DNA of 64,000 bases from NCBI GenBank assembly GCA_001938485.1, contig MQRK01244263.1, positions 1 to 64,000 on the forward strand, written 5' to 3'. The notes beneath the pieces are model-generated. The model saw only the letters and a program-made list of their open reading frames with translations, searched no databases and was not told the origin of the DNA. Source of the DNA: Girardia tigrina (lineage: Eukaryota). The position numbers and the translations under genes are program-made. This document shows positions 17,243-55,781 of this stretch, piece after piece (the stretch's first letter is position 1; each line of letters begins with the position of its first letter).

Positions 17243-18146
17243 TTATTTTAAAATGGACGCGTGGTGCAGCCACCTTACCATCCTGGACGGTAGCATCACT
17301 ATCTCAGGAGATATGCGTCGGGAGTTTGACGGTTCCCATCTCGGCTGCGGACTGACAATCGCCAATCAAATTATTGGTGACAAAAAATATCTATCCCGAA
17401 GAGTCCCACGTATTGGACCCGTGAATATGTGCTCTGCCCAATGCGCGAGAGAACGCAGGTCATCAGACATATACCGACACTATTCCTCAGGAAACCGACT
17501 ACAGTGAATTCGATAACTTGTGTTCGAACCTTCGGTAATAACAACAACAAACATTGCTTCATTTACAACACATCCTGAAAACAAATTAAAGACGACTGTT
17601 ATGCTCCGTTCAAATGACAGAAATAAGAAAACTGATTTATTTGTGTTTAAATTAACTTATGTAATAATAGCCATGTGCACAAAATTTTAATTCAGTTTGT
17701 GGATTATACAAAATAAATGGTTGTTTCTTGTCACACATTTTATCTTATTCTTTTTTAATTCGAATAAAAAAATAAAAAGCGATCCACATCGCTCTGAATT
17801 TACCGGCCGTACCATACACCCCACCGCTACACACATTTTGGTGGCGCACAGCGGAGCTCCACGACCGCATCAATACAACATCTGAGTTGCGGATTGATGA
17901 GCCAACTAGACAATTTTGCCGCTTCAAGAGCATTCAGCAGTCACTAGGCCGTTAATGCATCACGGGAAGCCGTGGATGACAGAATATGGTTCCTTACTTG
18001 ACGAGGCACCTGCTGGGAGAAACTCGGTCCGACGGTTACCGGCGTCCACCGAACTGACCGATCAATCCAATCATCCGGCATCTTCTCGCACAATTAAAAT
18101 GTGCTGGTCGCCGTCACGTGATCTCGCAGTCGTCACCTCAACGACT
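17243..18146 (-). pseudogene. GC-rich decayed exon-like cassette antisense to and downstream of the gypsy gag-pro
   Basis: Two GC-rich blocks, each preceded on the minus strand by an acceptor (TTTTATAG near 18147; TGTTTTCAG at 17575). Block 17574-17243 reads about 110 codons with only 2 internal stops. Confidence 0.4.
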
Positions 18147-18240
18147 ATAAAAACTTTGTACTTTCCATTTAAATTCACATTATGGGATTACATTTATTCG
18201 TTTTAACAACATTCATTTTTTTCACATTTATTAATTATTA

Positions 18241-20568: not shown

Positions 20569-23500
20569 CAGGGGTCTCCATACTTTTGACAACGCGGGCC
20601 GGATGGCGCATTGGAAGATAGTCCCGCGGGCAACATATATAAATTATGATATTAAAAACGCATAATTAGTGAATAAACAGATAAATGATAAGTTTATTAA
20701 TAATATGAACATATAAAATTATAATTGTAATTACATGATAGTGAAAATTTTGAAAATATATTCAAAACAATAAGATTAAATTCCATTTAATAACTATTTT
20801 TTTCAAAAAATTGGACGATTAGCAGGAGATCTAACTAGTGAGAATGGTGTAACTGTTGTTGATTTTGTAAAATATCTGAGTAATCCGGTAGAATCTTCGA
20901 AGTACTAATCATAAGTAAGGATTTTAAATGTGACTCTGACAAAGAAGTTCTGTATTTTGATTTGATATACTTCATTTTAGAAACAAATTGTTCGCAAAGG
21001 TAAATGGTGCCAAACATTGCAATAAACTGACAAGCAATTTTTTTAAATTTAGAAAGTGGTCCAAATCCAAATTATAAAAATCAATCAAGTTTTCTTCCTT
21101 ATATTTATACGTTCATCTTCCTGCAGTTCAATTACTTCCATTTGAAAATGGGTTGGAATATTTCTAACATCACAATCGAACGGATTTTGAAAAAACCTTA
21201 TTTCCGCAGCATCAGCATCCGGTTCAGCAAAACGTTTTCCGAAATTGTTGTTTTAAGTCTTCGATAACTACATATGTGAAAGGCAAAGGAAATGTCCCTT
21301 GGCTCGTTTTATACAATTCTGCACAGTATTGCATATGTGTAAAATTATAATTGTTTATTTGGCTTTCTAGCAGTAGCAACTTTGCTCTGAATGCCTTTAT
21401 ATTTGTGTAAAAATCGCAAATTCAATTATTTTCACCTTGTAATTTTAAATTTAAATTGTTCATATGTGTTAAGGCGCGGTAAGGAAGAATACTTTTCCTT
21501 ACTTCCTAGCGACTCAACAAAAGAAGATATTAAAAATCTTCTATTAACTCAATCTCAGACGAAATACTATCCCTTGGTTTATTAAAATTTATTATCACGA
21601 AAAATAACGTAAGACAATTCAATAATAAAATTTATTTATAATATTAACAAGATTTTTTACACAAATTATTAAACAAAATATACTAAAATANNNNNNNNNN
21701 NNNNNNNNNNNNNNNTGGCTTATAAAACACCGTTTAAAAGCACAACTCAATTTGATAAATATGAATTATTAGTTTATTATAATAAAAATTATTGAGTTTA
21801 CAAAATTCAATTACTTAACCAAAGGAAGGAACAAATTATAACCTCGTGTCTGTGCAATTAGAGTCCTGAACGAACCAATAGGAGTGAGCAGTAAAGGATT
21901 AAATAGATTCTTCGACAAGATAAACACGAAATTTGGTCCCAAGTTTGATAAATTCTTCGTCAAGATAAACACGTAATTTGATCCCAAATTTGTACAAGAT
22001 TATACGTCTCTTCGTCGATATTAAAGATGCGTGATTGGACTCCGAATTTCTGAATTAAGTTATAAATTTTTTTCCTTAAGATTTTATGAAAAGGGTTTAC
22101 CTGAATTAAGTTATAAATTTTACAATTCGACAGATTTGTCAGTTGTTNNNNNNNNNNNNNNNNNNNNNNNNNNNNNNNNNNNNNNNNNNNNNNNNNNNNN
22201 NNNNNNNNNNNNNNNNNNNNNNNNNNNNNNNNNNNNNNNNNNNNNNNNNNNNNNNNNNNNNNNNNNNNNNNNNNNNNNNNNNNNNNNNNNNNNNNNNNNN
22301 NNNNNNNNNNNNNNNNNNNNNNNNNNNNAATAATTTAAATAAATAATTTATATTGAAATTAATATATTTTTTTTTTAAAAATTATAAATAATAAATAAAC
22401 GCAACACGATTAAATATAAACATAAAAATAATTAAATAAAAATTCACGAAATTCAAAAATATAACATTCACAAAAATAAAAATAAGCAACCCAAATTCAA
22501 ATTAAGAATAAATAAAAAGATTCATATTTTCATTACATTACATTACCCCAACATATGATTTACCAAATCTGCAAAAATTACCAACTTCCAGAGCCATTCA
22601 CAATTTGACAAAAGTGGTTCAGAGTGATCTTTCTCGGTAAGGAAAATATCAATTTCATGTCTGAGTTGAAAGAAACGGAAAAGAACTTTTCCACAACTAA
22701 GCCAACGAACAGCGGTGTAGTATGTCAAATCTATATATTCGGAATCACATTCTTCAAGGAAAGTTCGAAATTGGTGATTTTTAATAGCATGAGCACGAAT
22801 AAAGTTTACCATTGAAATGACGGGCTTCAATACACAGTTCATATCAATATATTTTGCAAAGTGATTGTTGGTGGATCATACAGTAAAAAAACATAGGTTT
22901 TGATTTTTCAATTATTTCACACGCTTTTGAGATTTTTTCAACCAAACCTTTTTTATACCAGCCATGTTTCTTGCGCCATCAATTGTAACGCATTGTAATC
23001 GACTCCAATCTAACTTATAATCATTTAAATGTTTTTTCAACTTCCTTGAAAATGCCCTCTCCCGTTGTAGTGCTATGCATGCTACAAAGTGAAGCTAATT
23101 CCTGCGTAACGTTAAGATTATTGTCAACGCCACGAAAACATATTACAAGCTGTGCGGTATTAGAAATATCAGTTGATTAGTCCAAAGCCAAATTGTTTGT
23201 TTAAAAATGTTGTTTCCGATATGTTCAACACGTCGACCAATTGTATTTGGTGCAAGATTTACCATTTTAAACATATTAATTTTTTCTGGACATAACTCAG
23301 TCACTGCTTCCATGATACAATCTTTAATCATATTGCCATAAGTGCACGGTTTTCCTCTTTTAGCCAGCACATACGCAATTTTGTAACTTGCCAAGATATA
23401 GTTTTCATTATACTTTTTCTGTTTCATAAAAAAATTCTATTGGGATTGCAAAACTTGAGATAATGATTCAAATTTATTTAGCCGCTCTTTTTTTTAAATT

Positions 23501-25540: not shown

Positions 25541-27599
25541 CTTTCAAAATGCACTCTCGACAACTTTATTGAGAGTTTTTAAATGATTTATTGATTATGT
25601 ATTGATGGTATAATCATTTCTGATAATATATAACTCAATTTCGTTTTTTTAATCAGTTGTTCTGAGGATTACGGTCAACCCGTCAAAATTAATAAACACC
25701 ATAAGAAATTTTGATTGGCTTATTAATTTTAATTTTTTTTAAATATTTGTTATTTCTGGGTTATATTTGTATTGTAATGTATTGTAATGTATTGTAATAA
25801 TGTCAACAAATGATTTTGTTACCACATTAAACGCAAGAAAAACTGAGTGAGTTCCTGAAAATATGTATTCAACCCTTTAAAAATAGCCTGGTGTGAATTT
25901 TTCACCCTAGTGACAGTAATTATACAGTAGCATTTAATGTTTCAATTATTATTGGGTATATTTGTGTATCTATTAATCTGCACTATAAGTGGCAGTCGAT
26001 GATTCTGGTTTACTTTTAAAGTCCCGAAACAGTCCCCATTATTGTTGTTTGGCGCTTAAACCAAGTTAAAATTAAATTTTTCGTAGGTTGTTTGACGTAG
26101 CTGGTACCAATTTAATACCAGTTGACAAAGTATCAGCAAGGAACGCTGTCATATATACTTTCGACAAAATGACAAATAATTTTGCAAAGTTTGGTCTCAA
26201 ACAGTGCAATAGTTTTGGAGTCTATTTGTAACATAAACACGTACACATATTTTAATACAAATAGGTCCGCGTCGGGAAGTTCTCTTTTAATAAAATTAAA
26301 ATATTATCAAACAAACAATAAGCTTCCACCACAAAATGTAGCGAACAAAAAGCCTAATTTAATTAATAAAGTATTATAATTTTTTCATTTTTTTAAAATT
26401 GTTTCACCATTCTTTAAAAAGCATTAAAATACTTGTACAACAATTTCTACTTTTATCGAAATTCATTTTATTGATATAAATTACGAAAAAAAGTTTTTTA
26501 TTAAATAAAATTTTTTGATTAATTTATAATTTTTTGGTAATAACTGAAAAAATTATCAAATTTTTATTATCTTTTTCATTCTCTAAAATGTGTCATTAAA
26601 ACTAAATTGTTAACTTATAAAAAATATTTATAATTTACTTTTGCTATCACAATAAATTTTAGAATAATTTTTACAAGCTATTACGTTTATTACTTTCGAT
26701 TTCTAAATATTTGTATTTTTATTAATTTTATATGGTTAATAAATTAATACTATATTGAAAATTAAATGGAATAAACATCAAAATTGTTTTTTAAAATATC
26801 ATTATAAAAATAATTCAAATTCTTGGAAAAAGATATCCTTCGAGGATTTTTTACTTCTAAAAATAATTTTTATTTTAAAAAATAATATTAAACATACGCT
26901 TTTAACGGCGTTACTTTTCAATAATATCAAACAATAATCAAAATTAACACAAAATATTAAGTTTTATTTATAATATAAAGTACAAAAGAATTCCGAATGT
27001 CAAAGACGAATTAAAATAATTTTAAGATGAGAAAGAACAACAAATGACAAATATATTTTAGGAGAATTCTTTTAGAGTTTTTTAATCACATTTTTGATTC
27101 GGAATTGTTATGACGAAATGTCTCATGCTTCACTTTTCTCTCTTCGATACAATGAGGCTTCCCGGGAATTAAACCACTTTGAAAAGGAAATTTTTTTAAA
27201 TATTTCCGTAGAATTTCAACCGAGATTTCCTTGTTCTCCATTTCCATATTGTTTGAATAAATCTATTAATAAATTATCAGGAAGTAATTCAGTTTTCCAA
27301 TAATTTAAAATAATTACTATTTAAATATAAACACATTAAAATAAAATGAAGAATATAAACAAAAGATTCCAGAAATAAATTATTATATCATTATGTAATA
27401 ATTTAATCATTGAGTTCCCTACAAATTTAGGTATAATAAAATTAATTTTAAAATTGGATTTATTATAATTTATTAATTAAGAGTTGTAGACTTTGTTTAA
27501 AATGGTTATCTTTAATTATATCAAATTTCATTGATTCTACATAAAAATCTTAGGTTTATCATTGTGAGCAATGTTTTAAATTGTGTAATTCTGAATTGT

Positions 27600-28520
27600 A
27601 ATTCTCATACTCAGTTTGAAATAATGAATACAAACCGAGAAATAACTATTCAAAAGTTGCAAAGTGCGAGTAATACCACGAAGAAGGACACATAAGAAGA
27701 AAATATCCGAATATAAAGTGTTCTTATTAGAACAGAAATGGATATCAGGACACGATTCTACATGAAAAAGATTTAAAGAGACCAAGACATCAGAAAAAAA
27801 TGAATGGAAAAGAACAATTAACCCACGAAATCAACAGAGACCTCAAAATCGAAGATATCATATTGTAGAAATGCATGATGGCAACGATTACAACGAATAC
27901 GAAAAAACACGTTCAAATGAAGGAAACTCGAGGCAAAGAATGTTTACAGATAACAGACAAGTATACAACAAAGACTAGGGAAACGAGGATGCACGATCAC
28001 AAGGAGAGGTGATCAGTGTGCTTCATTAAAAAGTAAAAATGTTTGTGTATGTTGTGGTATATATGACTGTATGTAAGATACCTCTCTCGAAGATTGTGAA
28101 TTAGATTGTTGGAAAGAAGAATTTGACACGGACTGTTTTGATAAGGAGATAAAGATAAAATCGAAAAAGTTGAAACAGGAAGAAATGTTGGCAATATCAA
28201 AGCTTAATATTAGAAATAAAAAATTGAATGGAAGACCAAGCATTGAATTTAATACAAAGGATATGAATGTTGAATGTCTTTTGGATACCGCTGCGAAAGT
28301 AAATATTGTTAAAGCAGATATACTTAGAAGTATGAAAGATGTTCAGATAAAAAGATGAGTAAACGCATTCATTGTGAAAATGATTCAGAACTTGTAAATT
28401 ATGGAATTGTTAAATTAAAAGTAATAATTAAAGGAGTAGTCAAAGAACTCAATCCAAAAATAATAGCAGGAGTTTAACTTTTAGACAAATTTGGAATAAA
28501 ACTTGTGAGGGATAATTTGG
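27600..28520 (+). pseudogene. Ty3/gypsy gag C-terminus and protease remnant
   Basis: R/N/Q-rich gag tail, NVCVCCG knuckle remnant, NGRPSIEF...ECLLDTAAKVNIV protease motif. Confidence 0.8.
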
Positions 28521-28816
28521 AATGTTGTAAGTTTGTTGTTTGTATGCTGTTTTGATTTGTGACTCTCCTACTCAGATGGGATTGATATGTTTATTGTTTT
28601 ATTATTTGAATCTAATGATATTAATTTTAAGTACTAATTAATTAAAGTTTTATAATTATGAATTTTAATAATATTTTTAGTAAACGATTTTAACTTATTA
28701 AATTTAATATATTTTAAAAATGTTCGTATAACAAATTACGTAATGCTTTTTCATCCAATAAAATTTAAGAAATTCAAAATTAATATTAAAAACTTTCCCA
28801 TTCATTGTTCTTTTAG

Positions 28817-28921
28817 ATTTGAATACTTAAACAAAAACTATATCAATCAAAGAAGGATGAACTCTGAAAATTGTTGTGAAGAATCTGTTTGTGTTGTCAA
28901 TAAATGTCTACATTCAAATTG
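28817..28921 (+). pseudogene. Cys-rich exon fragment (NKCLHSNC family) between gypsy protease and RT
   Basis: TTTTAG acceptor, then FEYLNKNYINQRRMNSENCCEESVCVVNKCLHSNC; homologous to 18241-18392. Confidence 0.5.
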
Positions 28922-29400
28922 TGATGTTATTAATAAAACTAAAGAAGAAAACTAATGATTCAGGTAAGATATTGATGATTATAAATAGTCCTACGGATGA
29001 TGACTGACTAAAGAGAATTAAAGAAATATATAACACCAAAGTTGACAACCAACTAATGAGACTATAAACAAAATACAAATCCATATTCATGGCTGACATG
29101 TTGGATGTTGGGAAATTTTCCACGACGAGACACAAAATAGAAACTCTCGGAGAACCAGTCTTAGTGAAGCCTTATCAACAGCCACATTTTGAAGAGAAAC
29201 TAGATGATGTCTTTAGAAATTTTAAAGAAAACGGTATAATTGAAAAGTGTAGTTCTCCATGAAACTTTGCACTGGTGTGTGTATGAAAAAAAAGAGAAAG
29301 AAGACATTCGAGTATGTGTCGATTTTTGACAGTTGAATAAAATTACGGTAAGACCGGCATTTCCTATACCAAATGTGGATGTCATGTTAAACACGTTTTG
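28922..29400 (+). pseudogene. Ty3/gypsy reverse transcriptase N-terminal remnant
   Basis: HKIETLGEPVLVKPYQQP, ENGIIEKCSSP*NFALVCV*KKE, IRVCVDF*QLNKITVRPAFPIPNVDVML; truncated near 29400. Confidence 0.9.
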
Positions 29401-29407
29401 AATGAAG

Positions 29408-32113
29408 TGTTACGATCGACCTTTACGTTGTTACTAGTAATGTTGTTACAATTGACGAATATCTCACCCCAGACCCCTTCCGTCCATTACACCACCCCGT
29501 GAGTACAAAATTGTCGTGAAATTTTGGAATAGTCAAACTTGACTATTCCCGTTACGTTTAAGTGTACCCTGTGCGTCAACGAAGTGGCGAAGTCCGGGGA
29601 GATCTATGAGCGCGCCTTGAGAGTGGTTGTGAGCCTGAAGTTGATGGGAGAGCGTTGCGAGACTTTTTAGAGACCCTTGGAGAAACCTATAAAACCGGAA
29701 TAAAATCAATTAATTAGTAAAATTAATTACCGATCATGAATCATGGTGATTCAACATCATCCGAGATTACAAACATCGGTTGTGTAAACAGCGATTACCC
29801 CCCTCCAGTAAAAAAGTGAGGACTCCGTACCAGTCTGCAAGATGACATCTATGTCCTGTAAATGAAGAATAAGCAACTAAAACTGACATATTAGAATTAA
29901 AGGAATTACCGATAATCATCTTTACGCACTTGGCTGTGCGATTGCCGTAAAGGATTCGTCGACCAGATGACCGTTGGATAAATAAGCTACATAAAATAAA
30001 TATTTTCAAGATATCCGCGAATCGCGGATGTTGCAGACGACGACATCCCGACATGTGGAGATAAGGTAAACATGCGACTAAGCGCAACCATTCTTTCCTT
30101 GCATCCGGCCTCGAGTAATCAAAATTTACAAATTGACAAGATATCGAGTGTGTAGCAGAATGACAGGTTGTTTCGCACCGGTCAGAACACTTTAAACACT
30201 CGTTTATTATTATTATTCACGCACAAAATTTGTACAGACTTCATTACCTTTATCATTTATTCCGCACGATATTATACCGATTTTACTGACTTAATTCGTC
30301 TCAACTGATTTTACCGATTCAACGATTTTGTTTTGGCGATTCATTGTTTTGGGAATACGACAGTTCTTTTGAAAGATCGAAATATTTTAGTTTTTACTGA
30401 AAGGTATGGATGAGTTACTACTTTGTTTGTTTATTTATGAATTTTAATTTCCTTAATATTATATGATAATTGGTGTTTACAATGTGTGTGAATTAATACA
30501 TTTTTATTTTACTCCTAATTTATTTCTAGCTTATCATTTTTATTTAATTTTTAAAATGCTCATGGTGTCACGAGCGGGAGGGGATGCGTATAATCGTAAC
30601 TTCCGCTACCATTCAAGAATAAGGGGATTAACTGAGGAGAGATAGTCGGGAAGGAAAGACTGGAGTGTGAGGATCCTGTGGATCGACGAAAAGATAAGGA
30701 GTGAAGACGCCGAGTGGTGGGGTCCAGAAGTTTATCGGTTTTAGAGAAAGTTCAAAGTAATCGCCAACATGAACATGGTAGTAGAGGACGGAAGGCTTGT
30801 AAAGATAGAATCATGAAAATTAAAATTATTAAAGGTTCAACTGTATATAAAAGATTGTATGGGTGACAATGAAAGCCCGAGACTACGGCTAATGCTCTTT
30901 ACCACTCCTCTTCACGTAGTGACACGACGAGTTGAATCCCAATATGTAATTTTATTTTATAACTTTTATTGTAATCTTTAGGAAATTTTATTATAAAAGT
31001 TTTATTATGGTTTGGAGTTTCATAATAATAGATTTTATTATAATAGTATTTATGGTGTAAATATCAACGATAAATTGGATATTCGTATGGAACTCCCTAT
31101 AATAATATTTATGATATGTAAATATTTGTAATTGATATTAGGAGCAATGACTTATAATTGATTTAATTTAACTGTTTACTTGATTATTTACTCGATTCAA
31201 TTAAAGGTAAAAATTTTATTTGAAATTATTAACCTTGACTAACTTAATTAGCTAAAATTCTTTATATTTTATTTAATGAATTCAAAGATTAAATTTCTTT
31301 TATTTTATGATTACAACTCATGATTGAGGAATTTAATTTGGCTGTTGTAAGTTTGGTAATTAAAGTTTAAAAGGTTTCGTAATTTCGCTTTCATATTGAT
31401 TTTAATATAAATTTGGAATTTATAATTTTAGTAATTTCCCTTAATTATTTTTTATTGATTTTGCTCTCGTAAGTAATTACGACAAATTATTGATTTTGAG
31501 ATCGGTTACTTGGGGTAGGTCCCGAACTTATTGTCACGACCCACTTGTTCGTAGCAATTTTGAACGCTCAGAGCCCCCAGTGACTATTAAGGGTCAGTCA
31601 CAACCCGATTTCGGTTTATGTTACCTATATGCTAATTTTTAATACTCATCGATGCACTATATCTATTTGTGGGTCGGACGCCTCTTCTCGCTCGACATCT
31701 GCCTAACAGTGCCGAGTCTGAAGGGCCTGCGGGTTTGGGTAAAGATAGGATGGGCTATGGGCCCCCCTAGCGGAGTGTCGCTCTGGGATGATTTATGTTT
31801 TGGTTGTGTGTAGTATGAGACTTACGGCAATGTTGTGTCCGCGTGTGAACTTAATGCATCTGTTATGTTTTATTAACTTTTGGCATTGTGTATGTCATTA
31901 TGCAACTGAAAGGAACATTGTATTAGCGTACATCATATAGGGAGTTATCATTAATTATTGTTATTCGTCATTATATTATTAGAAGATCGATAATCAACAG
32001 CAGCTTCAGCTAACTTTACTCTAAGCCTACCGTTTCTATCAGTCAGTTTATATACTCGACCCAATATATTACGAGTCTGTAAGTTGCTCAATTCATGAAC
32101 TTCTTATAGTATA
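29408..32113 (+). mobile_element. Long LTR-like segment with decayed accessory ORFs
   Basis: Begins TGTTACG where the RT breaks; TATA-like CCTATAAAA near 29686; GTATGG...TTCTAG intron about 30404-30529; ORF 30557-30815 with two stops; ORF 31652-31813. Right end not identified. Confidence 0.45.
31652..31813 (+). CDS. Small accessory ORF (GR[LI]FS...SLKG family), function unknown
   Basis: MHYIYLWVGRLFSLDICLTVPSLKGLRVWVKIGWAMGPPSGVSLWDDLCFGCV*; aligns to exon 34784-34902. Confidence 0.4.
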   Translation: MHYIYLWVGRLFSLDICLTVPSLKGLRVWVKIGWAMGPPSGVSLWDDLCFGCV

Positions 32114-32115
32114 TA

Positions 32116-33397
32116 TTAGGGTGAGTCATAAGTTGTGGGGCACTTTTTATTAAAAATTAAAATGTTCATAAAACAACGCACAATAAAGATTATGATTCGA
32201 AATAAAGTCCATTATGTTCAATACATNNNNNNNNNNNNNNNNNNNNNNNNNNNNNNNNNNNNNNNNNNNNNNNNNNNNNNNNNNNNNNNNNNNNNNNNNN
32301 NNNNNNNNNNNNNNNNNNNNNNNNNNNNNNNNNNNNNNNNNNNNNNNNNNNNNNNNNNNNNNNNNNNNNNNNNNNNNNNNNNNNNNNNNNNNNNNNNNNN
32401 NNNNNNNNNNNNNNNNNNNNNNNNNNNNNNNNNNNNNNNNNNNNNNNNNNNNNNNNNNNNNNNNNNNNNNNNNNNNNNNNNNNNNNNNNNNNNNNNNNNN
32501 NNNNNNNNNNNNNNNNNNNNNNNNNNNNNNNNNNNNNNNNNNNNNNNNNNNNNNNNNNNNNNNNNNNNNNNNNNNNNNNNNNNNNNNNNNNNNNNNNNNN
32601 NNNNNNNNNNNNNNNNNNNNNNNNNNNNNNNNNNNNNNNNNNNNNNNNNNNNNNNNNNNNNNNNNNNNNNNNNNNNNNNNNNNNNNNNNNNNNNNNNNNN
32701 NNNNNNNNNNNNNNNNNNNNNNNNNNNNNNNNNNNNNNNNNNNNNNNNNNNNNNNNNNNNNNNNNNNNNNNNNNNNNNNNNNNNNNNNNNNNNNNNNNNN
32801 NNNNNNNNNNNNNNNNNNNNNNNNNNNNNNNNNNNNNNNNNNNNNNNNNNNNNNNNNNNNNNNNNNNNNNNNNNNNNNNNNNNNNNNNNNNNNNNNNNNN
32901 NNNNNNNNNNNNNNNNNNNNNNNNNNNNNNNNNNNNNNNNNNNNNNNNNNNNNNNNNNNNNNNNNNNNNNNNNNNNNNNNNNNNNNNNNNNNNNNNNNNN
33001 NNNNNNNNNNNNNNNNNNNNNNNNNNNNNNNNNNNNNNNNNNNNNNNNNNNNNNNNNNNNNNNNNNNNNNNNNNNNNNNCCATCTTGCTGCCGAAGATTT
33101 GGAGACAAAGCCCTCCCCTTCAACTTGGGAAATTTCCTTTACGGCAGCCCTTGAACTCAGACATTTTTTCCAGAAAAATTTCAAAAGTACTCTAATTTAA
33201 AATTTTTCCATAATTTTCTAAAATGTTTAAAAAATTAGAATGAACATAAAATCATGATTTTCTTACAAATACTGAAACTCCAGTTTATGAGCTTTATTAC
33301 GATATACAAATTCAATTAATATCGATTCGACAATTCATGTTGTAATTAAAGATAATTACTTTGGAAAGAGTGCCCCACGACTTATGACTCACACTAA
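32116..33397 (-). mobile_element. Mariner element (centre in gap)
   Basis: TIRs TTAGGGTGAGTCATAAGTTGTGGGGCACT and reverse complement TTAGTGTGAGTCATAAGTCGTGGGGCACT with TA TSDs; N-terminal HTH IRVLLKFFWKKCLSSRAAVKEISQVEGEGFVSKSSAARW. Confidence 0.9.
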
Positions 33398-33855
33398 TAT
33401 TCAGGCCTAGTTATTAAAATTCGTATCTATTTCAAAATAATAAAAGTCACAATAAAATAAACTAATATCACATAAAACCAAATTGACGCTGCGCATTTTA
33501 CATAATTACTTATCAGAAAATTATCGCAAGAAAAATAATCGCTTTTTCTTTTTTAATTCTAAACTATAAATTTAAGACAATTCGTTAATGCTTTAATTTC
33601 TATATTCTATTTTCAACTAATTGTTTGATAATTCTAATTCGAAATTCTTATAAAATTCACGGAATAAAAATGGTTGAGTATTACCTATAATTTACTCAAT
33701 TATAAAGATAATAAAAAAATTTAAAATCATCAAAATTTTCTGTAGCAAAATCTTTTTCTTACAAAAGAAAACTATTCAAGTTAATAATTAATATAGAACC
33801 ATAAAACTCGAATAAAAAAAATTATATTTGTTTTATTATATCAATTGGATTTATT

Positions 33856-35600
33856 TGTTACGTCGGAGAAACAAATCCGATAGTAATCTAATGATCACCC
33901 GGCGTAAACCGGCATTATCGGAGGTTAGCGCGTTCGATAGGAACGCACTAATGATCCCACCCCGTCGATGCACGGGCCGGTGTAGTGACCGTCCTCAAAT
34001 TCATACTCTGGTATCGACCTTATGTCGATGATTATGGGAAGCAGTGACTCCCCGTCGCTCTCTTGCGAAGCATCTAACAATAATGAAGCTTGGGACATCG
34101 AGAGGACAACGACGGGGACGACGGTCGCTCAACTACGAGTTCTAAAAGGTAAATTATATCGCAAAATCTATTTATAATCAACTCGTTTATTCTTGTTTGT
34201 CATTATAACGATATATAAAACTAAATACAAGTTATTCCGAATTAAAGTCGATACAACGTATACATATATTTAAATAATAATAAATAAACAAAATTACGCT
34301 TAAAATTTTCTATTATCGTAATCGGCTTTCCGGAGGACGTCGGGATTGTTAGCTTTTAGAATCGTTTTAAAATTATTTATTTTTTCTGCTTGTTGTTATT
34401 GTTGTCTTTGATTATGCTGTATATTGCGGTGCGTTAATTCTGATAAACGCTTGTTTTTGTTGTCGTCTTGTGTCTCAAAACTGTTTATTTTATAGTTGCA
34501 GGACGACACACTGGCTCCGGACTCCGCCAATAGCTGAACCGGTCTGGTTTTTTCAGATCCTCAATTGGATGGCTGGGTATGTGTGTCTTTTAAACTTTTT
34601 GAAATTTTTAACATTTTTATTATAGAATCCACTGCCCGTGTGCTGACCTACATACGCATGTCACGAATCGGTGTGCGGTCAAGTAAGGACAGCGCTTCTA
34701 TTTTTAGATCCGAGGGTTGATTCAGCGTAAGTTTTTTAATTAGTCTTTGTTTTTAATTAATATTTCTTTGTTTTTTTTCTCAGGGCGTATCTTCTCTCCG
34801 GGAATCGCTATGAACCTGCGGGCGGCCCATAAGGTTTTGTCGCGTCGAGACCTTTCGCTGAAGGGTCGGTTGGCCTTCTAGGTCCACCGGATTGTCCTTG
34901 AGGTGATTATATTATTTTGTCTGGTTTCTTAATTATTATATATATTTTTTAAGGGTGATCTCATCCTTCCTCAAGGCCTCGAGGCTCTCAATTCCTTTCA
35001 CGAACTTATGATAATGACGTTTGACCATGATTTATTTGTGTTTGTTTTATATGTATTTATTGATTTATATTCGTTTTATATTTGTAATATATGTATGTTA
35101 TGAAACCGTGTTCGTTTTGCTCTAAGTGTTACAACTTTTGGACCGCAACATTATCTTAGTGTTGGAGTTGATTTAAAGTCTTCCGAATTTTAATATTATT
35201 TTAAAAGAGAAAAAGTCGTTGCCCTAATAACTATGATAAACCTATATAAACATACGAGTAACGGCCCTCTTTAGGACTATGATGTGTGATTATAAAATCG
35301 AGGCTACTTGTGACTACTTATGTGAATAAATTATAAATAACCAATCCAAAGATGGTATTAATCTCAATATATCAGCTCGTACCCCTCCAGACGCTGAAGT
35401 TACCGACCTGATGTCGGTTCGAGGACCCGATGGCGCTCCAAAGTGCATACTGTCAGCAGATATGCATGGAGGGGACGCGTCCGTTCCCCTTGTTGCAGTA
35501 AATGTGTTAACGAGAGATCCATGGGTTGTCGATTTCCAGAAAAAAAACAGCTAGGGGATCAGGGCCAACAAAAATATTGTTGAGAGAAGGGGACGCGACA
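33856..35600 (+). mobile_element. LTR-like segment containing a multi-exon spliced cassette
   Basis: Termini TGTTACGTC...GACGCGACA (7/9 inverted), flanks TATT and AATT; GC-rich exons 34496-34576, 34626-34726, 34784-34902 and 34954 onward, separated by AT-rich GT-AG introns of 49, 57 and 51 nt. Confidence 0.55.
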
Positions 35601-36159
35601 AATTGTTTAATTCAATTATTAACTTTTGTAATAGCTAACTGTTGATTTTAGTGGTATTATAATCCGATTATACTCTTTGAGTTTGAATCTATTTTTCGGT
35701 AGCCTTATAAGTTAGTGATACCCACGTAAAAATTATAATCATAATTACGTAATGTTTTTCACTTTTTTGTGATATATTATATAAAATATTGATCAAAACA
35801 ATTATTTAAACAAGTTTTAAAATTAAATAAGTTTTAGAAAAGTTGCGAAAAGATGCATTTTTAAAATAAAAAGTTGCAAAAGTGATGAATGCGACAAAAA
35901 ACTTGTTCAGGTAATCAGTTGATATAACACAAATAGACATTGAATTATTGTTCTTATTGTCTAATAATTGGTAGAAATACATTTGAGAAGTTGAGAATCA
36001 AATTGAAAATAAATTTGAATTAAAATTAAAACTGAAAACCCAACAATTTTGAATATCGTAAATCTTTTAAATGCTAAAAATCAATAAACTTTGTTGTTAT
36101 TTAAACACAAAGTTTACATATCAAAATTAATCAATTATTTTGGTTGGTTCAACGAAAAA

Positions 36160-37596
36160 ATATCACATGAAAAAACACCACAGGAAAAACCACAATAATA
36201 TCACATGAAAAAACACCACACTGAAAGAACACCACAAATTTTATTCTTTTTTTTTAAATTTTCGAGTTTTTCTTTTGTTAGGATAAGAGAATCATATATT
36301 TATATTTATATCCATATCTATATTTATACATATAAAGGATCGTAAATAATATTACAAATGCTCCTGAAATATCAATAGAAATATTAAAACTTTGTTTTAA
36401 TATTCAATTATTTTGGTGTCAGATTTAAATAAATTAATAAATTCTTGTTATGTCTGATTCGACTTACATAGCGACCACTCAAAGTGCCGTAAATAACCTG
36501 GTACCGAAAATTTTTGATGGGTGCGGTGATTTAGAAGAGTTCATCACCGACTGCAGACGTAATTTCGAGATCTGCCAATTCAATTATGCGGTCAAAGGAT
36601 TAATGGTCAAGGCCTTTATCGGGAGGGATTTACTCGTCACATACGAGGCCGTTGATCCGAAGATAGTCTATTTCGCGGAGTAACTAAAACGAGTGTTTCA
36701 AAAATCGACTTCATTAATTCAGGATCTCCAAGATTTGATGAATTACCGGAAAGGATCGGATATCGCACCGGCATTTTTCAAGAAGGTGGAAAAGATGGTG
36801 GAAAAAATATTAATCACAAAAATATTAAGCACAAGTAGAACAAGCAAGAACTTATGTCTTACTTCTTGACACATTGCGTCAAGAATATAGAAACGAATAC
36901 GCAGATCATGATTCATGAGGCGAAATCACCAGAAGCGATTAAATCTGTAATTGAGAAAATGGAGAACATCAGAGCGGAGGTGGAAAATAGTGAAGTTGCC
37001 GTTATCAGTAAACACAAAAAATTGCTAATGTGTTGAAAGACCGTTCTCAATTCTCGGTCCGATCGAACATCAGGGGCCAAGCGAACAATTAAACAAGAGA
37101 CCGACAGAGATTTGCAACAACTCCAAAATTTTCTCCAAATCAGACTCGAGAAACGGAAAGTAATTCTCGTATTTGTTATAATTGTAGAAAAAAGGCACAC
37201 ATTCGACGCGAATGCCTGGAAATAAACAAAATATGTTATGAATGTCGGGGTGCCGGACATATCCGGAGAGATTATCCATATACAAAGTTCAGTTTGTAAT
37301 AATCATGGACATTTGAGATACCAGTGCTTTCAGAGGTCGACCACATACAGCCCACGCTGGAATCAAGGACCAAGTCGATACAAACCCCAGGACCGATACA
37401 GACAAGAAGTCGCTGGTTTAGATGACAATCAGGAATCCAGATCGGTTGGATCGGTGACAGACGGGTCACTAAAATCGGAGGCCCTACCAGTTTAGGAGAT
37501 GGTGGGAGCCATAAACAGTAGTAATGTGTTTTCTTTCATCACTCTCCTCAAAACATTTGCTCAGGCTTCCTGTGGACATGAATCATGGGAGTGAAG
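36160..37596 (+). pseudogene. Ty3/gypsy 5' leader and gag pseudogene
   Basis: TGGTGTCAGA (PBS-like, 36414) precedes ATG 36450; gag NLVPKIFDG..DLEEFITDCRR..F...SLIQDL...YRKGSD; knuckles CYNCRKKAH and CNNHGHLRYQC; stops and frameshifts. Confidence 0.88.
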
Positions 37597-37929
37597 TGAT
37601 ACGTTACCAGTAATATTTCCATCTACAGTACTCCATCTAAAACGTCATTACGTCATATCAATAAAATTTTATCATTTATGTAAAAATTTATTAAAATATA
37701 ATTACATTAATGTTTAAGAAACCAAGACAATGCAAAGCCTAATAATATTTTATTAGAAAGATACAGACCGATTAACGTTAGTTAATATTATATGGGTCCT
37801 CATTTTGCATTAATACTAGTGTTGCGGTTGGAACTTAATAATATATCCAAGTATATAACATAAAAGGAAAACAATTGAGAATAAATACATATATTAAAAG
37901 TTATTACAAAAAGAATATGACGAAATGTC

Positions 37930-38500
37930 ATGATCTATGGCTCGGGCTCATGTCGGTAGTATCTTTGGTCTTCCTGCGGTCCAGCGGGACGTCGTTAACA
38001 TTTTCCAGATCCTAAACATCACGCAAATGAGCAAAATATACAAAGTCGCGTCAAGACTCACCTGATGAAAGAAATTGATCAACCGGATCTCTCCACAAAG
38101 CTCTTGTTGAGAACTCCGTGCAGATACCTTGTTCGTCCAATTCCTGATATCGAGAGCCAAGTTATTAACCCTTGAAAGATACGACAAATTAATTAAAATT
38201 ACCAAAATTAATTAAAAACTTACATGAGTAAACGACAATTTCAGAGAAAAACATCACGCAATTATTCATAGTGGATAATCCGTGATTCACAAGGCACATG
38301 ACGATAGCAACCTGTAAAAGCGCAGTCATAGAGTTAATACAAAAATTCAGAAACTTACTTCAGACACACGAACACACCACACGCTTTAGCAAATTGAAAC
38401 GAAGGATCGTCATTAGAGACCAATCAGGAACGACCACGACGACATTACACACTGCATCCAGAAATAACGACATTATATATACACCGATCTAACCAACATA
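37930..38500 (-). pseudogene. Second multi-exon spliced cassette, downstream of the minus-strand gag
   Basis: Introns 38358-38312 (47 nt, GTAAGT..ACAG), 38223-38171 (53 nt, GTAAGT..CAAG) and 38061-38012 (50 nt, GTGAGT..TTAG); the last two exons join as VNNLALDIRNWTNKV...FFHQ|DLENVNDVPLDRRKTKDTTDMSPSHRS*. Confidence 0.6.
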
Positions 38501-38866
38501 ACTGAGAACAATTGAACAACAATAATTTGAGAACCCTTTTAGAAACAAGAATTCGAACAAATTTTCAAGAGCAACTTGGAACAGACTCTGCAAACAAGAT
38601 TAACAATCGGAACCGGAATTCACGAATAGAATCATCATAACCAAACTACACGATATTGCCGAGAGACATCTTCCATTTGAATAATCTGTAGAATTGCGAG
38701 TGACCAGCGATAAACATTCCTCCGGATCCAGTTTTTCATTGCAGTTAAAGAAGTTACGTGCAACGTATTTTATAATGTAAATTTTCGACGTTTTTATAAT
38801 TTGAATATATTTATTTCATACCCATTTTTGTTTTTCGTATATCTTCATTTAATAATTAATTTAAAT

Positions 38867-39360
38867 TTATAATTTTATAGTTTCATTGAGGTCTTGAATT
38901 AACGACGTCGGACGTTTGAACGCCTTCTGCAATCTGTCAGAGAAATCTGAGATTTTTAAATCCACCGATTCGTAAGCCTTGACCATTGTCGCTTGGATGG
39001 CTTCATTGATCTGGGTGACTTCAAAAAATCTTCGACATTCGGATATAAAATCTTCAATATCCTGCGATCCATCGTAACTTTTTGGAGTCAAATTACCTAT
39101 AACACTGGCCGTGGTCGCCATGTAAGAATTTTCCATCAATAATTAATAAGTCGAAATAAAATGCAAAATTTATTCTTATTTAAAAAATGTGCGTTTTTTG
39201 TTTATTTAAACAAAAACCATCAAGAGCCTTAATTCAGAATATTTTGGATCCATTATTATAATATTGTAAATGTTATCTTAGTATAGTAAAAATAATATAG
39301 ATATTTATCCTTACATACTATAAATATAGTGTTGTTTTTTCATGTGATGTTTTTTTCTGG
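38867..39360 (-). pseudogene. Truncated Ty3/gypsy gag with leader
   Basis: MENSYMATTASVIGNLTPKSYDGSQDIEDFISECRRFFE...TSLIQDL is a clear paralogue of the 36450 gag; shares the upstream ATCACATGAAAAAACA motif. Confidence 0.88.
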
Positions 39361-40061
39361 TCACCATTTTGGTTTCTGAAACATAAATTAAATATTTATA
39401 TCATTAGTTTCAATGATATAATTTCTTTAGCAAAAACAACTTCAAAAATTAATCTAATTTTTTATTTGATAAAAATGACTTCCGTCAAATTATTTTTGTC
39501 TTTATTGTCACAATTAGATAAACATTTTTTTTAACTTACAAGATAGTTTCATAATTTTTGAAATTTTCTTTACTTCATTCGTTTAGCATAATTATACTGT
39601 CTCAAGTTACAATACGTCGCAGCGTTCCTCCTTCACAACCTCCATTGCTTCTTCGATTCAGTTGGAAGGATTTATTTGATAAAATAGATAACAATTCACT
39701 ATTCGTAAACAATATTTCAATTAAAAATACAAAAAACTGATAAAATTTATTGATCTTAATAAATTGTTCAAATTAAAACAAACCGTAATATTATGAAAAA
39801 TTTCGACAATAGATTCCACAAGACAAAACGGTGACTAAAATTAGAATAAATGGAAAAATATAGATTTAAAGCAAAAATTCACAGGTGTAATATTACTTAT
39901 AAAAATCATTAAATTTTCATGATACAATTAATTTTTCCATATTGAAGAAAACGTTATAAAAATACACAGGAAGCTCTGCTTGGACCACATGAAGAGATGA
40001 ATTCCTGTCGGATGGGCTTCAATACATCTTACTGATTATTACTTTACTAATTCTATTAAAT

Positions 40062-40307
40062 TCATATTTTACAAAAGCATTTTAACAGCTCTATAAATAA
40101 TATGAATCCAGCAACCGTGTTCAACAATAAAAAGAAACATTTGAAGTGCGATTTAACAGAAAATAAAAATAAGTCAGCACCAAAAATAATCAAAACAATA
40201 GTAATAATAATAATAATAATAATAGTAATAATAATCAGTACCGATAATGTAAATGTCATTAATGCAATGAAGTTATTGTAGAAAATATCTGTTTTTTTTA
40301 ATAACAA
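40062..40307 (-). CDS. Possible small hydrophobic membrane-protein ORF or exon
   Basis: 81 open codons with two hydrophobic stretches, the first partly built from an (ATT)n tract; may instead be 3' UTR of the upstream gene. Confidence 0.2.
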   Translation of the reverse strand: MLLKKTDIFYNNFIALMTFTLSVLIIITIIIIIIITIVLIIFGADLFLFSVKSHFKCFFLLLNTVAGFILFIELLKCFCKI

Positions 40308-40367
40308 TCAAACAAAAAAGATTAATGCAAAAAAATTTCTTTGTGTAAAAAACAACGTAAATAAATA

Positions 40368-42653
40368 TTAATATTCATTTTCGAAAGTTTTCATTGACGT
40401 TTCTTCGGATAAGCTGTCCATTGGCTGGTAGCATCCTCCGAAACCATTCAATTTATCTCTGTATTGATTCATTTCAGGAAACGTGGATTCCATGTTCAAA
40501 TCATTAAGAACTTCAACAGCCATATTGAGACTGTCGCGACGCGGTATGTTTTCATCTGAAGTTAAAATTTGTCAAACAAAAATTTGCCAAACACTAATTA
40601 AAATGAAACAAAATCCGGAGAACTAGTAAATCAAAAAAATCTTTTTTTTTAGAAAAGTCCATCAAAAATTGATTAAAAAATTCGCAATTTTAAACAATTT
40701 AATCGATTCGGAGTCGATATTTCGGATCCACAGCTCGAACTAGTGTCCAATCGAGACGATTGTGGTGAAAAAAATGATCGGTCGGTTAAGAAAAACATTT
40801 TATTATGTGTTTCGGTACAGTGCAACTGTTAGATCAAGGTTAAATCCATAATTATTCGGTCCAATTAAATATTTTTTGATCGAATAATTTGGTTTTGATT
40901 GTTGATTTAGAAAGCCTGCTCAAAATGTCATTTCCACTCCTTAAATCACCGAAAAATTGTTTTTAACACGAGAAAAGTATGACAAAGAATGGAATGCTCA
41001 AAGTTCAGAAAATCAATATTTTTTAAAAAAAATTCTCATGACAAAGATATCATCAAATAAACTATAATTATTAAGAAGTGCGAAAATGTATTTATCACGA
41101 AAGAATACCAAAAAAATCATAAATTTATGATAAATATAAAAGAATACAAATTTGAATTAAATTATTTTATATTTAATTTATAAATAAGCATAATTATGGG
41201 ATAATTGCAAATTCTATTTGGTGCAAAAAATGACTAATTAATCATTTACACAGTGAATTTTTTAATTGGTTCTTGTATTGTCATTGGAATTAAAAATTAG
41301 GAAAAAATTTAGTTCATTCGGACCACAGGAAGTAGTGAAAAATCGTTTAACAAATTTGTGACACACACATATGAAGACAGTTAATATAAGCATTGTAAAA
41401 ATAATTGTTTCTTGGGGGCTTATTTTTGCAAAAATTATGTGATTCGGTCATATATCATTTCAAAATATTTAATCAGAAATTAACATTTTATTATAATGTA
41501 TAAAAAATGTATCAATGATCTTTCAAATCATATTTTTATTTTTTGACATGGAATAACTCAGTATTCACTTACGTATCCAAGGAATTTTATGAATACATAA
41601 CATGGCAACGATTTTTTAGACGCTTATAAAGTTATTGATGGTAAGTATACTTTTAGGAAGATGATTTTTTATCAACAAACAAAGCAACCATCTGCACGCA
41701 TTCGTCTACAAATACTAAATAGAATTTAGTTAAATAATGTTAATTGAAGAATTTTGTTAGAAATATCTTTTAAAATGTGCACTTTAAAATAAATAATTTT
41801 GAAAAATATTTCTGTGTCACATTGTCTAAAATTAAATAGTTGCAATTGTTAAGAGAACTCATACATTTGACAGAACATTTATTACATTCATATTTTTGAT
41901 CATCTCTATGATGATCAATAGTATTGCTTTCACTTAAATCCATCACTCAATGTTTAATACTTTTCATTCCAATCTGAACTAACTTGAAGAAAATTATTTT
42001 ATTTAAAATATTTCATTTAAATTTTATTGCCTAAAATAAAATTATCTTTTATAATTATTTTTAAACATTAATTTGATTTTAATTATTTAAAAATTAACAA
42101 AAATAAAATCAATAAAATTATTTAAGTTACAATAATAAAAAATTTGAATATTAAATCTAAATAAATTAGTTTCAGATTATAAGAATTAAAATATTAATCA
42201 AATCAACACACAACATTTAAACATTACACACCAACTTTCTGATAATGAAAAAAAATATCATATTTTAATTTGATCGTATTAAGAAAGAGACCTGTTCGGA
42301 TGGTGATTTCGGGTATCCATGAGAAGTTTGTATTAAGATCCACATCTACATTTTCAGGATGAAGATTTTCACAAGGTTTGATTTTCGGAGATGGTTCTCT
42401 AGAAGAATCATTCTGATGAGATCCACTGGGTAAAGTCCAGTAGCATTCATCATTTATCTCTGGTAAACGTTGAGTTTTGTTCTAAATTATTTAATCAATA
42501 GTTTAGTTACTAAACCAGATCGCTTTTAATTACATTTTCTATGTTTGGATTAATGTCGAAATTCCCTTCATTATTAGTGGAGGAGTCTGAAATATTGAAT
42601 TGTTGCGTCGAGTTATATATTTGCGATGGATCAGAATTAACATGCTCATATGA
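40368..42653 (-). CDS. Last three exons of a host gene (42653-42516, 42481-42292, 40555-40368); low-complexity protein C-terminus
   Basis: Three stop-free exons with AG acceptors and GT donors join in phase (0, then 1): SYEHVNSDPSQIY...KSDL|NKTQRLPEINDECYW...ITIRT-D-ENIPRRDSL...CYQPMDSLSEETSMKTFENEY*. The 42291 donor (GTCTCT) is weak. Confidence 0.7.
40685..41020 (+). repeat. Dispersed repeat, copy 1 (copy 2 at 49620-49935)
   Basis: Colinear shared blocks aatttaatcgatt, ctcgaactagt, cggtcggttaa, gaataatttggt, gaaagcctg, ttgttttta.cacgagaaa, cagaaaatcaatatttttt. Confidence 0.75.
41200..41400 (+). mobile_element. 3' end of a HINE/DINE-like element
   Basis: Ends ...TTCGGACC.CAGGAAGT.GTGAAAAATCG...AAATTTGTGACACACACA...TTAATATAAGCATTGTAAAA, the same layout as 11750-11850. 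Confidence 0.4.
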
Positions 42654-42859: not shown

Positions 42860-43498
42860 TATTGATAAAACGAAGTCCGGATGAAAGTCTTCTTTTAATA
42901 ACCAAACTCATCCATTAAAAATATATATTTTAAGAAAATATATTTCGACGGATCTACCGTCATCTTCAGGTCACTAATTAATAATCAATTCACCTGTATA
43001 TAAATACAAAAATGATGATTATGTAATCGATTGCATGAAATCATACTAATCAAAAATTCTCAATAAGCTGGTTGAGACTACCGATTGATCATTAATTTTA
43101 GGGCAACGTGACCTAATTAACAATGCTTCACACAACACTCTCTCCCAATAACTGTCAAAATGCTTACACAGAATTTTTGATGTTAGTTTTGATAATTTCA
43201 AAATTCTGTGTAAGCATTTTGACAGTTATTGGGAGAGAGTGTCGTGTGAAGCATTGTTAATTAGGTCACGTTGCCCTAAAATCAATGTTCAATCGGNNNN
43301 NNNNNNNNNNNNNNNNNNNNNNNNNNNNNNNNNNNNNNNNNNNNNNAGCATTGTTAATTAGGTCACGTTGCCCTAAAATCAATGTTCAATCGGTAGTCTC
43401 AACCAGCTTATTGAGAATTTTTGATTAGCATGATTTCATGCAATCGATTACATAATCATCATTTTATATTTATATACAGGTGAATTGATTATTAATTA
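42860..43498 (-). mobile_element. Penelope-like retroelement 3' end (pLTR) with inverted duplication
   Basis: About 205-bp inverted arms (42975-43179 versus 43199-43498, minus the gap overlap) encode VSFDNFKILCKHFDSYWERVSCEALLIRSRCPKINVQSVVSTSLLRIFD*, matching the PLE GIY-YIG C-terminal pattern NFxIL...ExLxI...PxxNxQ; the minus arm continues into a hammerhead. Confidence 0.85.
42933..42974 (-). ncRNA. Minimal type I hammerhead ribozyme (PLE-associated)
   Basis: Minus strand: GUGAC-CUGAAGA-U-GACGG-UAGAU-CCGUC-GAAA-UAUAUU-UUC. Core CUGANGA and GAAA, 5-bp stem II, palindromic minimal stem III; stem I imperfect (GAC versus UUC). Confidence 0.75.
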
Positions 43499-45925: not shown

Positions 45926-46377
45926 AAAAATTATTTTTTAATAATTTGTTTAATTTAATTTGTGGGTTTAATAAATCTTTGAAAACAATTCCTACTTTTA
46001 ACTTTAAATATAAGATAATAATTATTTAGAAATCGACACAGTTAACAATTTTTATGTTATTAATTATGAAAATTTAGTTTAAACTTTTTTACTTTAATAA
46101 AATTAATAATTTTATTGAAATCATAAAATCATTAATTTAAACTTTTTAATATTTACATTACAATTTAACATGTAGATCATGCTCGAACAATTACTTGTCA
46201 CGAACATCAAAAATACTGATTTTCCATCAGGACGAGAGAAACACATTTTCAAATACAAAATATCAAAATTAAAATATTCCTCAGAGTTTATTCATAAAAT
46301 GCACACATACATACGTCTACATATATTATATATAAGACTATTTTATCTGGGGTAGTTATCTAGTAATTATTATAATA

Positions 46378-47188
46378 CAGGGGTGGCCATAAGTCGCTTT
46401 ACCCAGTTTTAATAAGAATAAACACAAAATTCTAAATGATACAACTTTTATTTAATCAGCGTACAATAATAATTTCAAAACAAAAACTTGAAAACAATTA
46501 AATCTTATCTTCAAAGTGTTGTCCTTCAGATTTAATACACAACTGGATTCTTCTCTGAACAGAGTGACAGATTAGTCGGCACAAGTCTTTATCGTTGTTC
46601 AAGGCTGCAAATTCTGTAGTAATTCTTTCTTCAACTCGGATATGGTTAGAACATTTTGTGAGTAAACGCGTTCCTTCAGGATAACCCACATTGAATAATC
46701 ATAAGGTGTCAGGTCCGGTGATCATGGAGGCCATTCAGTGGTTCCTCTCCTGGCAATCCACATCTCAATCCACATCGAAAGTTCTAACATTTTCTTTATT
46801 TTCATCGGTATTCATATTGTTAGGGTGCCCACTTCTGTTCTTGTCGGTTACAGAGCCGGTCTCGTGAAACTTTTTAGCCAAAACATGCATTGATTGTCGT
46901 GATGGAGGAGCGTCATTAGGATATTCTTTTGCAAATGCTGCATCTACAGCTCTTGAATTTCTATCATGCTTTATCCACTGCTTTACTATAAAAATTCGTT
47001 GCTGAAGTGTTAATTGTCGTGCCATACCAATATTGCCAACAACAATGAACAAAATGAAATAATTTTAAAATTTTTTAAATAAATAATTATCAAAACAAAC
47101 AATTTTATCTGGTTTTTGTTTATAAATCATTTAGAATTTTGTGTTTATTATTATTAAAACTGGGTAAAGAGACTTATGGCCACCCCTG
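46378..47188 (-). mobile_element. Internally deleted Tc1/mariner element (WPPRSPDL class, DD41D-like)
   Basis: About 62-bp TIRs CAGGGGTGGCCATAAGTC.CTTTACCCAGTTTTAATAA.AATAAACACAAAATTCTAAATGA with TA TSDs; N-terminal HTH (KKFHETGSV..KNRSGHP) fused directly to EWPP*SPDLTPYDYSMWGYLKERVY. Confidence 0.92.
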
Positions 47189-47324
47189 TATATATTATTA
47201 TAGATTGTTGAAGAGAAATTAAATTTAATTAATTACGTGTAAATAAATAATATGGAAGTGATTATAATCTCATTTTTTATTAATGGAAATTAATTTTCAA
47301 AGAATTTTATTGTCACTTTCAATA

Positions 47325-55470: not shown

Positions 55471-55487
55471 GTACAATATTAACTCAC

Positions 55488-55781
55488 TTGCCTATAATGA
55501 TAGCAATTATTATTATCATTATTATTATTACTGTTGTAATTGTTATAATCGAACTCACATATCTAGGAATATCATTGTTATCGAAGCCGGACTCTTCCGA
55601 GAATTTATTAAAGTTTCCAAATTTAAAAGGAGAATTTAACTCATTAGGATCAAGATTTTCATCAGGGGTATTGGGATCAATATAATTATCCAGAAATGAC
55701 GACGAAATAGAAATATCTCGTTCTAGATTGTTTGGTTTAAATAATTCTTCTGAAGTATCTTGAACGTTTTTAGTTCTCTCC
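55488..55781 (-). CDS. Internal exon of a single-pass membrane protein (acidic stalk plus TM helix)
   Basis: ATCAG acceptor and GTGAGT donor (alternative GCAAGT); 294 nt stop-free: ERTKNVQD...DNNDIPRYVSSIITITTVIIIMIIIIAIIIG. Confidence 0.65.

Follow-up and report, generated by a model that had tools for sequence, protein, structure and literature searches.

Intron-like stretches repeated in two diverged copies of a likely long terminal repeat of Girardia tigrina

Background

The usual way in which introns are lost is the reverse transcription of spliced RNA, and retroelements with long terminal repeats (LTRs) normally shed introns when they are copied. In a 64-kb stretch of Girardia tigrina DNA (contig MQRK01244263.1, positions 1-64,000, hereafter the window), two similar runs of three short intron-like stretches, cassettes A and B, lie close to remnants of gag genes, raising the question of what these stretches are and how a retroelement could keep them. 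A preliminary description of this DNA had proposed a multi-exon, protein-coding accessory gene of a Ty3/gypsy lineage. Here, we report that the repeated intron-like architecture is real and that it lies in a likely LTR, its splicing being a prediction from the sequence. We tentatively favour, at a probability of roughly 0.38, a reading in which A and B are diverged multi-copy relatives of a 1.3-kb LTR-type repeat and the stretches are real introns in a long U5 leader, kept since only unspliced RNA is copied.

Results

Architecture and homology of the cassettes

All six intron-like stretches of the preliminary description were found at their positions and lengths (Table 1), with GT..AG ends and T-rich interiors in 6/6 (47-57 nt), and the internal exons had the sizes it gave (101 and 119 nt in A, 88 and 109 nt in B). 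The lengths match the sole short host intron spliced by RNA contigs (52 nt). Five of the six passed our full intron-chain filter, based on length, T content, a branch-like motif and GC-rich spacing. Chains occurred at only three loci of the window (the triple of A, a pair in B and a pair in segment C), all of them GC-rich segments of the TG..CA type. Shuffles keeping composition blocks of 25 or 200 nt yielded a triple in 1/40 and 0/40 runs, and 0.8-1.1 pairs per window on average (up to 4), figures that flatter A, as the filter criteria were chosen after A had been seen. The triple of A is rare among these shuffles; B passes as a pair only.

The introns of A have a GC content of 0.16-0.18 versus 0.45-0.58 for its exons. 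Exons far richer in GC than those of the host (0.33-0.38; gag, 0.41) had been described for both cassettes, which is true of A but barely so of B (0.38-0.51). Both last exons read (G)DL as described, and stops are present in all spliced frames of the two copies. The last donors do both read GTGA, but this supposedly shared phase-0 donor is not a conserved site: the DNA alignment puts the donors of introns 1 and 3 at non-homologous positions, displaced by ~14 and ~12 nt between A and B.

At the DNA level, A and B are distantly homologous. They are colinear over the whole 750-nt region, and B was the best of 845 windows compared with A (score 304 versus 195 ± 20, the next unrelated window reaching 262). 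Relative to block shuffles, the alignment gave z-scores of 3.8-5.6 (0/200), and of 2.8-4.0 without intron 2. The middle introns, already noted to be alike, are the best-conserved part (z 4.55, 0/500 shuffles, top of 9 intron pairs), above any exon; both begin with GTAAGTTTTT, finish with AG followed by GG in the exon, and fold into a similar AU hairpin. Exon-by-exon similarity was not significant (z -0.35 to 1.43), nor were the exons alone (z 0.9). The motif TCCGGAGGA is common to both upstream regions, and ACCGCAACA stands 120 nt (A) and 108 nt (B) beyond the stop of the last exon; this 9-mer has 2 matches in 128 kb (both strands) versus 0.13 expected and is confined to the ends of A and B. 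The two copies are ~55% identical and both decayed.

An LTR-like repeat around cassette A

The better part of the preliminary description was its suggestion of a long LTR, as the homologous, multi-copy cassettes belong to a TG..CA-bounded LTR-like unit beside gag remnants. Unit A has termini inverted at 6/7 positions (TGTTACG/CGCAACA). Right ends at 35600 and 36468, with poorer inverted termini (5/7 and 4/7), were rejected: the earlier placement of A inside such a segment upstream of a gag stands, with 35150 fitting better than 35600 as its end. The left end receives weak support from an RNA-run contig that aligns from 33855 with a 6-nt overhang. Along the plus strand, unit A presents a GC-rich block, a TATA-like box, AATAAA, a T-rich 850-nt tail carrying the introns and the CA end, from which we infer a U3-R-long U5 order. 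It is likely a solo LTR. The window holds no second direct copy of it, and its left end was not homologous to the other termini (z -0.7, 0.0). Unit B is a 5'-truncated copy, and both copies present here are dead.

Table 1. Positions of the cassettes, their repeat units and associated features in the window
Feature	Position	Strand	Remarks
Unit A	33856-35150	+	1295-bp LTR-like repeat, TGTTACG...CGCAACA
GC-rich 5' part of unit A	33856-34150	+	GC 0.51; putative U3
TATA-like box and AATAAA	34212-34288	+	TATA-like box at 34212, AATAAA at 34279 and 34283; candidate promoter and R, weak
A intron-like 1	34577-34625	+	49 nt, GT..AG
A intron-like 2	34727-34783	+	57 nt, GT..AG; AU-rich inverted repeat over branch-like site
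A intron-like 3	34903-34953	+	51 nt, GT..AG
Unit B	37820-38876	-	Homologue of A without the GC-rich 5' part; ACCGCAACA end at 37820
B intron-like 1	38358-38312	-	47 nt, GT..AG
B intron-like 2	38223-38171	-	53 nt, GT..AG
B intron-like 3	38061-38012	-	50 nt, GT..AG; weakest, fails intron-chain filter
Gag A	36450-37520	+	Complete in length, disrupted by frameshifts and stops; motif like a primer-binding site (PBS) at 36469
Gag B	38876-39136	-	First 96 codons only; CTTACA followed by TGGCGACCACG, PBS-like motif at 39120
Segment C	29409-30924	-	TG..CA-bounded; intron-like 29909-29856 and 29730-29687 near 3' end; abuts broken pol-like region
Repeat piece	35250-35600	+	Inverted relative of terminus of repeat E at 31532

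Copy number

Contigs from four runs were aligned to 16.8 kb of the window. None of the runs that we call RNA-like is recorded as RNA, 13 of the 21 listed runs contain part of the stretch, and run X1 may be the window's own source and is not independent. In the DNA run, sites in exon 3 of A were covered by 9 and 28 contigs and exon 2 of B by 24. Summed DNA depths at cassette sites ranged from 1,700 to 94,000 versus 62-102 for unique contigs (20 to >1000 times), and in intron 2 of A from 79,545 to 94,010 versus ~75, summed contig depth being a poor measure and not a copy number. The cassettes are multi-copy rather than single-copy.

Gag remnants beside the units

Unit A precedes gag A by 1.3 kb in the same sense. 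The earlier statement that B follows a paralogous gag in sense is true, but this gag B is reduced to 96 codons, and cassette B is also contiguous with the end of gag A, to which it is antisense. Both remnants match P0001, a 345-amino-acid gag protein with CCHC knuckles (tblastn; gag A 53% and 35%, E 2e-64; gag B 73%, E 4e-40). P0001 matches Pfam zf-CCHC (E 3e-9), its Retrotrans_gag match falls below the cut-off (E 0.015), and its Atlas neighbours carry Retrotrans_gag/Ty3_capsid. Searches for related loci matched P0001 at 5 loci, through the zinc knuckles only (29-47%); none was found for gag B in metagenome contigs, and none in viral or prokaryote contigs. No pol was found for the A or B elements; the protease behind a related gag at 16284 passes RVP, and a piece resembling reverse transcriptase at 29008 had no Pfam or PDB match.

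That the two units are homologous and that each has a paralogous gag next to it suggests a family linkage. Membership of the LTR-like unit in the family of gags A and B is doubtful, as both gag starts have a PBS-like motif preceded by CTTACA instead of CGCAACA, and unit A has the look of a solo insertion. This motif, at 39120 (-), 36469 (+) and 15380 (+), coincides with the M-A-T-T start region of gag and stands directly after CTTACA in A and B; in gag B (TGGCGACCACG) we take it to be of the tRNA-Arg type. A search for an LTR common to the region upstream of gag B and the sequence following cassette B was negative. The AT-rich stretches before gag A (36155-36220 +, two copies) and before gag B (39329-39355 -) share a 27-nt motif (93%).

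Discussion

Proposed introns in a U5 leader

Under the favoured reading, transcription would start near 34240, behind the GC-rich U3 and the TATA box, placing the introns within the 5' leader of a gag-pol transcript. Part of this RNA would be spliced in the leader and serve as mRNA, and the unspliced pool would be packaged and reverse transcribed, restoring the introns in both new LTRs. That intron 2 is more conserved than the exons suggests a signal making spliced RNA a dead end: it may carry a sequence needed for copying. Retroviral packaging signals are situated behind the splice donor. Such a mechanism would require no protein and would tolerate sliding donors.

Several observations weigh against this reading. 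Once spliced, the A and B sequences with their flanks reach only z 1.8-2.3, and the stability of the intron-2 hairpin is no better than that of shuffles (z 0.80, -0.44). TATA-like and AATAAA motifs are common, with one match per 663 nt and per 304 nt, respectively, on each strand of the window; in B, AATAAA (38815) comes before the TATA match (38798), the reverse of the order in A, and segment C has no TATA match. An 850-nt tail is long for a U5. The 5-bp flanks of unit A (TTATT/TTATC) match at 4/5 positions, as do those of 87 of 1430 nearby positions, so that this target duplication has a chance level of 6% (0.06). No PBS follows 35150 and no polypurine tract precedes 33856, giving neither an LTR pair nor an orientation relative to gag-pol; such a lack is expected of a solo LTR, though no proof of one. 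In B, a single frame runs from ATG 38473 through 131 codons and three introns, with three internal stops, and ends at an AT-rich turn, which fits a decayed gene. As for splicing itself, contigs from the RNA-like runs gave no cassette joint among the 15 listed of 598 joints, host gene joints being seen. In one of these runs (X3), the RNA-to-DNA depth in intron 2 of A (16.7 and 17.2 per 1000) is not below that in exon 3 (16.6 and 12.6), a hint, from summed contig depths, of mostly unspliced sequence there.

Possibly similar segments elsewhere in the window

Segment C resembles A in its order, with a GC-rich start, six AATAAA, and then introns up to the CA end, and it is not detectably homologous to A or B (z 1.3-1.5). 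It has an inner block, TGTCAC..GTGACA, at 30566-30924, and no target site duplication. A broader proposal is that several unrelated LTR families of this animal keep runs of dedicated ~50-nt spliceosomal introns inside the LTR, in sense to the genomic RNA. Splicing of the leader, or a small spliced product encoded by the LTR, would split mRNA from the RNA that is copied, and seemingly dispensable introns would survive each cycle of reverse transcription; we regard this proposal as somewhat doubtful.

As a separate observation, 17255-18160 (-) comprises two GC-rich blocks parted by an AT-rich stretch with a strong acceptor-like site at 17575; it lies downstream of, and antisense to, a gag-protease remnant at 15376-16700 and is possibly a fourth segment of this layout. 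The piece at 35250-35600 is probably part of a different LTR family: its terminal 80 nt scored 55 against repeat E versus 18 ± 6.5 (0/2000 shuffles), and the whole piece was equalled in 3/1000. Repeat E itself (31532-32112) starts with TGTCACG and is very abundant, with a summed DNA depth of ~1.1 million at 31706.

A protein-coding accessory gene as an alternative

The idea of the preliminary description, a decayed sense gene of ~130 amino acids with several exons, situated in the LTR or in the internal part of a gypsy lineage and making a spliced mRNA beside unspliced RNA exported in a CERV/Rev-like manner, is the alternative that survives best, and we judge it unlikely. It would account for the GC-rich exons and for the 131-codon frame of B, which under lenient gap costs aligns end to end and without frameshift with the least-interrupted frame of A. 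The score of that alignment, 34, is that of the null (34.7 ± 5.6). Frameshift-aware A-B protein scores were likewise within the null (29-35 versus 29.8 ± 5.3; 34-49 versus 34.7 ± 5.6, maximum 55), and the best of six frame and parameter trials, 49, was matched by 3/100 shuffles. The best spliced frames of A and B hold 3 and 4 stops, at shuffle level (P 0.65 and 0.25), and identity by codon position in the B ATG frame (0.48/0.56/0.59) leaves third positions not more diverged, which is not a coding pattern. In addition, the intron phases differ between A and B, and no AATAAA lies between the stop of the last exon and the conserved ACCGCAACA end.

The cassette frames had no homologue among 4 and 1 word-sharing protein candidates and no Atlas or Pfam hit; exon 3 of B, of low power with its 36 amino acids, had 0 matches in 1.84 billion representative proteins, and pattern searches with the cassette DNA gave no match. 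With tests of little power, resting on two old decayed copies, the protein-gene reading is unsupported, and the cassette introns likely lie in a probably non-coding leader RNA rather than in a protein gene. Two exon-3 differences of A from all other copies, among the 40 listed of 1632 substitution rows and silent in the best frame, were dropped, private changes of a dead copy being uninformative on selection.

Orientation of the cassettes

Less likely still is a cassette antisense to the genomic RNA, either a gene like brtn or aORF-3R or a micropia-like antisense RNA, so that on the copied strand its introns would never meet the spliceosome. This would explain intron retention without special regulation, with precedents in plants and Botrytis (PMC7264820, available part), and a broken gag or pol region of the opposite strand precedes each of B, segment C and 17255-18160. 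The positions of A, upstream of gag A in sense, and of B, downstream of gag B in sense, speak against it. Moreover, segment C starts with a clean TG terminus amid the pol-like frame, which has the appearance of a nested insertion rather than of a continuation. No polypurine tract was found at the places expected, and the left end of A is unlike the other termini, as given above.

Lack of splicing and host capture as alternatives

We consider it distinctly improbable that the stretches are never spliced and mimic short introns in a GC-rich LTR, as AT-rich spacers or as elements acting at the DNA level (TAAT-rich binding sites). The lack of cassette joints among those listed and the coverage of A intron 2 like its exon are consistent with this, as are the non-conserved donors 1 and 3 and the pairs that arise about once per shuffled window. 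It fits poorly with GT..AG ends in every stretch at intron length, with the rarity of triples even when 25-nt blocks are kept, and with displaced donors that are still GT in each copy. For B, the X3 RNA-to-DNA depth was 4.1 per 1000 in intron 1 versus 22.4 in exon 2, a weak hint of splicing. The ratio was 3.1-5.6 per 1000 at three gag A sites, and the region 29860-30419, without cover in three RNA-like runs, supports no inference. Outside unit B, position 37760, near an AATAAA at 37754 (-), had the highest ratio of the 15 sites (136 per 1000).

A host gene fragment captured with its introns at the DNA level by a non-LTR repeat and passively amplified is very improbable: the introns are host-sized and no LTR pair, PBS or polypurine tract is tied to the unit, but the TG..CA ends, the conserved terminal 9-mer, the probable 5-bp duplication, the lack of any protein match in the searches above and a GC content of the A exons above that of host exons all argue against it.

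Genomic setting

The window is AT-rich (mostly 20-35% GC), gapped and packed with decayed transposons; the DNA transposons at 268-672, 9384-10046, 22543-23436, 46358-47205, 51278-51631 and 52422-53652 are presumably mariner/Tc1-, hAT- and piggyBac-like, judging from their translations. A host gene ends on the minus strand at 39855-42653. It is spliced in three RNA-like runs (X3, X12 and X13), with introns at 40556-42291 (1736 nt) and 42482-42533 (52 nt) and CT..AC joints at 40555/42292 and 42481/42534, and the splicing of a 52-nt intron by RNA contigs points to a eukaryotic source with ~50-nt introns. The set of transposons and the Atlas neighbours of gag suggest that this source is an animal. 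A further likely exon of this gene lies near 55484-55855. A scan of 27000-40000 returned 0 Rfam matches, and a tRNA gene search gave 0.

Beside the units, 32113-33400 is an element with 36-nt inverted ends (92%) that spans an assembly gap; a DNA contig joining 32114 to 33400 indicates that its empty site exists. The region 42975-43498 is a long, nearly perfect inverted repeat with a 50-N gap inside it; all four runs cover it very deeply, and it could be either a palindromic repeat or an artefact of the assembly.

Relation to known elements and implications

Known systems are compared here from the available parts of their sources. The BARE1 copia element of barley keeps an intron through distinct RNA pools (PMC3735527), and separate spliced and translated versus packaged and reverse-transcribed pools would likewise let the present LTR element retain introns. 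Splicing in BARE1 produces a Gag-only subgenomic RNA, whereas here three ~50-nt introns seemingly lie within the terminal repeat and the pools are only proposed. Cer1, a Ty3/gypsy element of C. elegans, offers an animal case of a multi-exon sense mRNA, the 5-exon CERV transcript, together with export of unspliced genomic RNA (PMC10309623), which is the precedent for the accessory gene weighed above. CERV, a protein of 517 amino acids, has exons in the frame of gag and draws on the open reading frame (ORF) behind pol; in our case, the exons are in an LTR-like unit and no protein is demonstrable.

Antisense additional ORFs of gypsy elements (Boty brtn, Grande gene23, RIRE2, Retand; PMC7264820) resemble the cassettes as an extra transcription unit carried family-wide. 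They differ in that the location and direction of the cassettes point to the LTR, and in the lack of a conserved ORF in the cassettes. Long LTRs and accessory ORFs are also found in the giant gypsy elements Burro/GYPSM1 of planarians and in Ogre, Burro residing in an AT-rich animal genome; the ORF1 of Burro has 4,873 amino acids versus the 345-amino-acid gag type found here, and the available part of the source mentions no LTR introns (PMC6431247). LTR introns are likewise not mentioned in the available parts of PMC8532177 and PMC11410931. In the open literature, with most subscription papers, Repbase and supplements outside its scope, our search found no report of dedicated short introns inside an LTR.

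A cassette lying antisense would be the animal equivalent of antisense genes known from fungi and plants, and less surprising. If a multi-copy LTR with three small sense introns is confirmed, it must either keep its genomic RNA from being spliced or have spliced copies selected against, and would thereby provide a natural, genome-wide assay of how a retroelement sorts mRNA from genomic RNA. Each solo LTR would then scatter a ready-made promoter and splice sites across the host genome.

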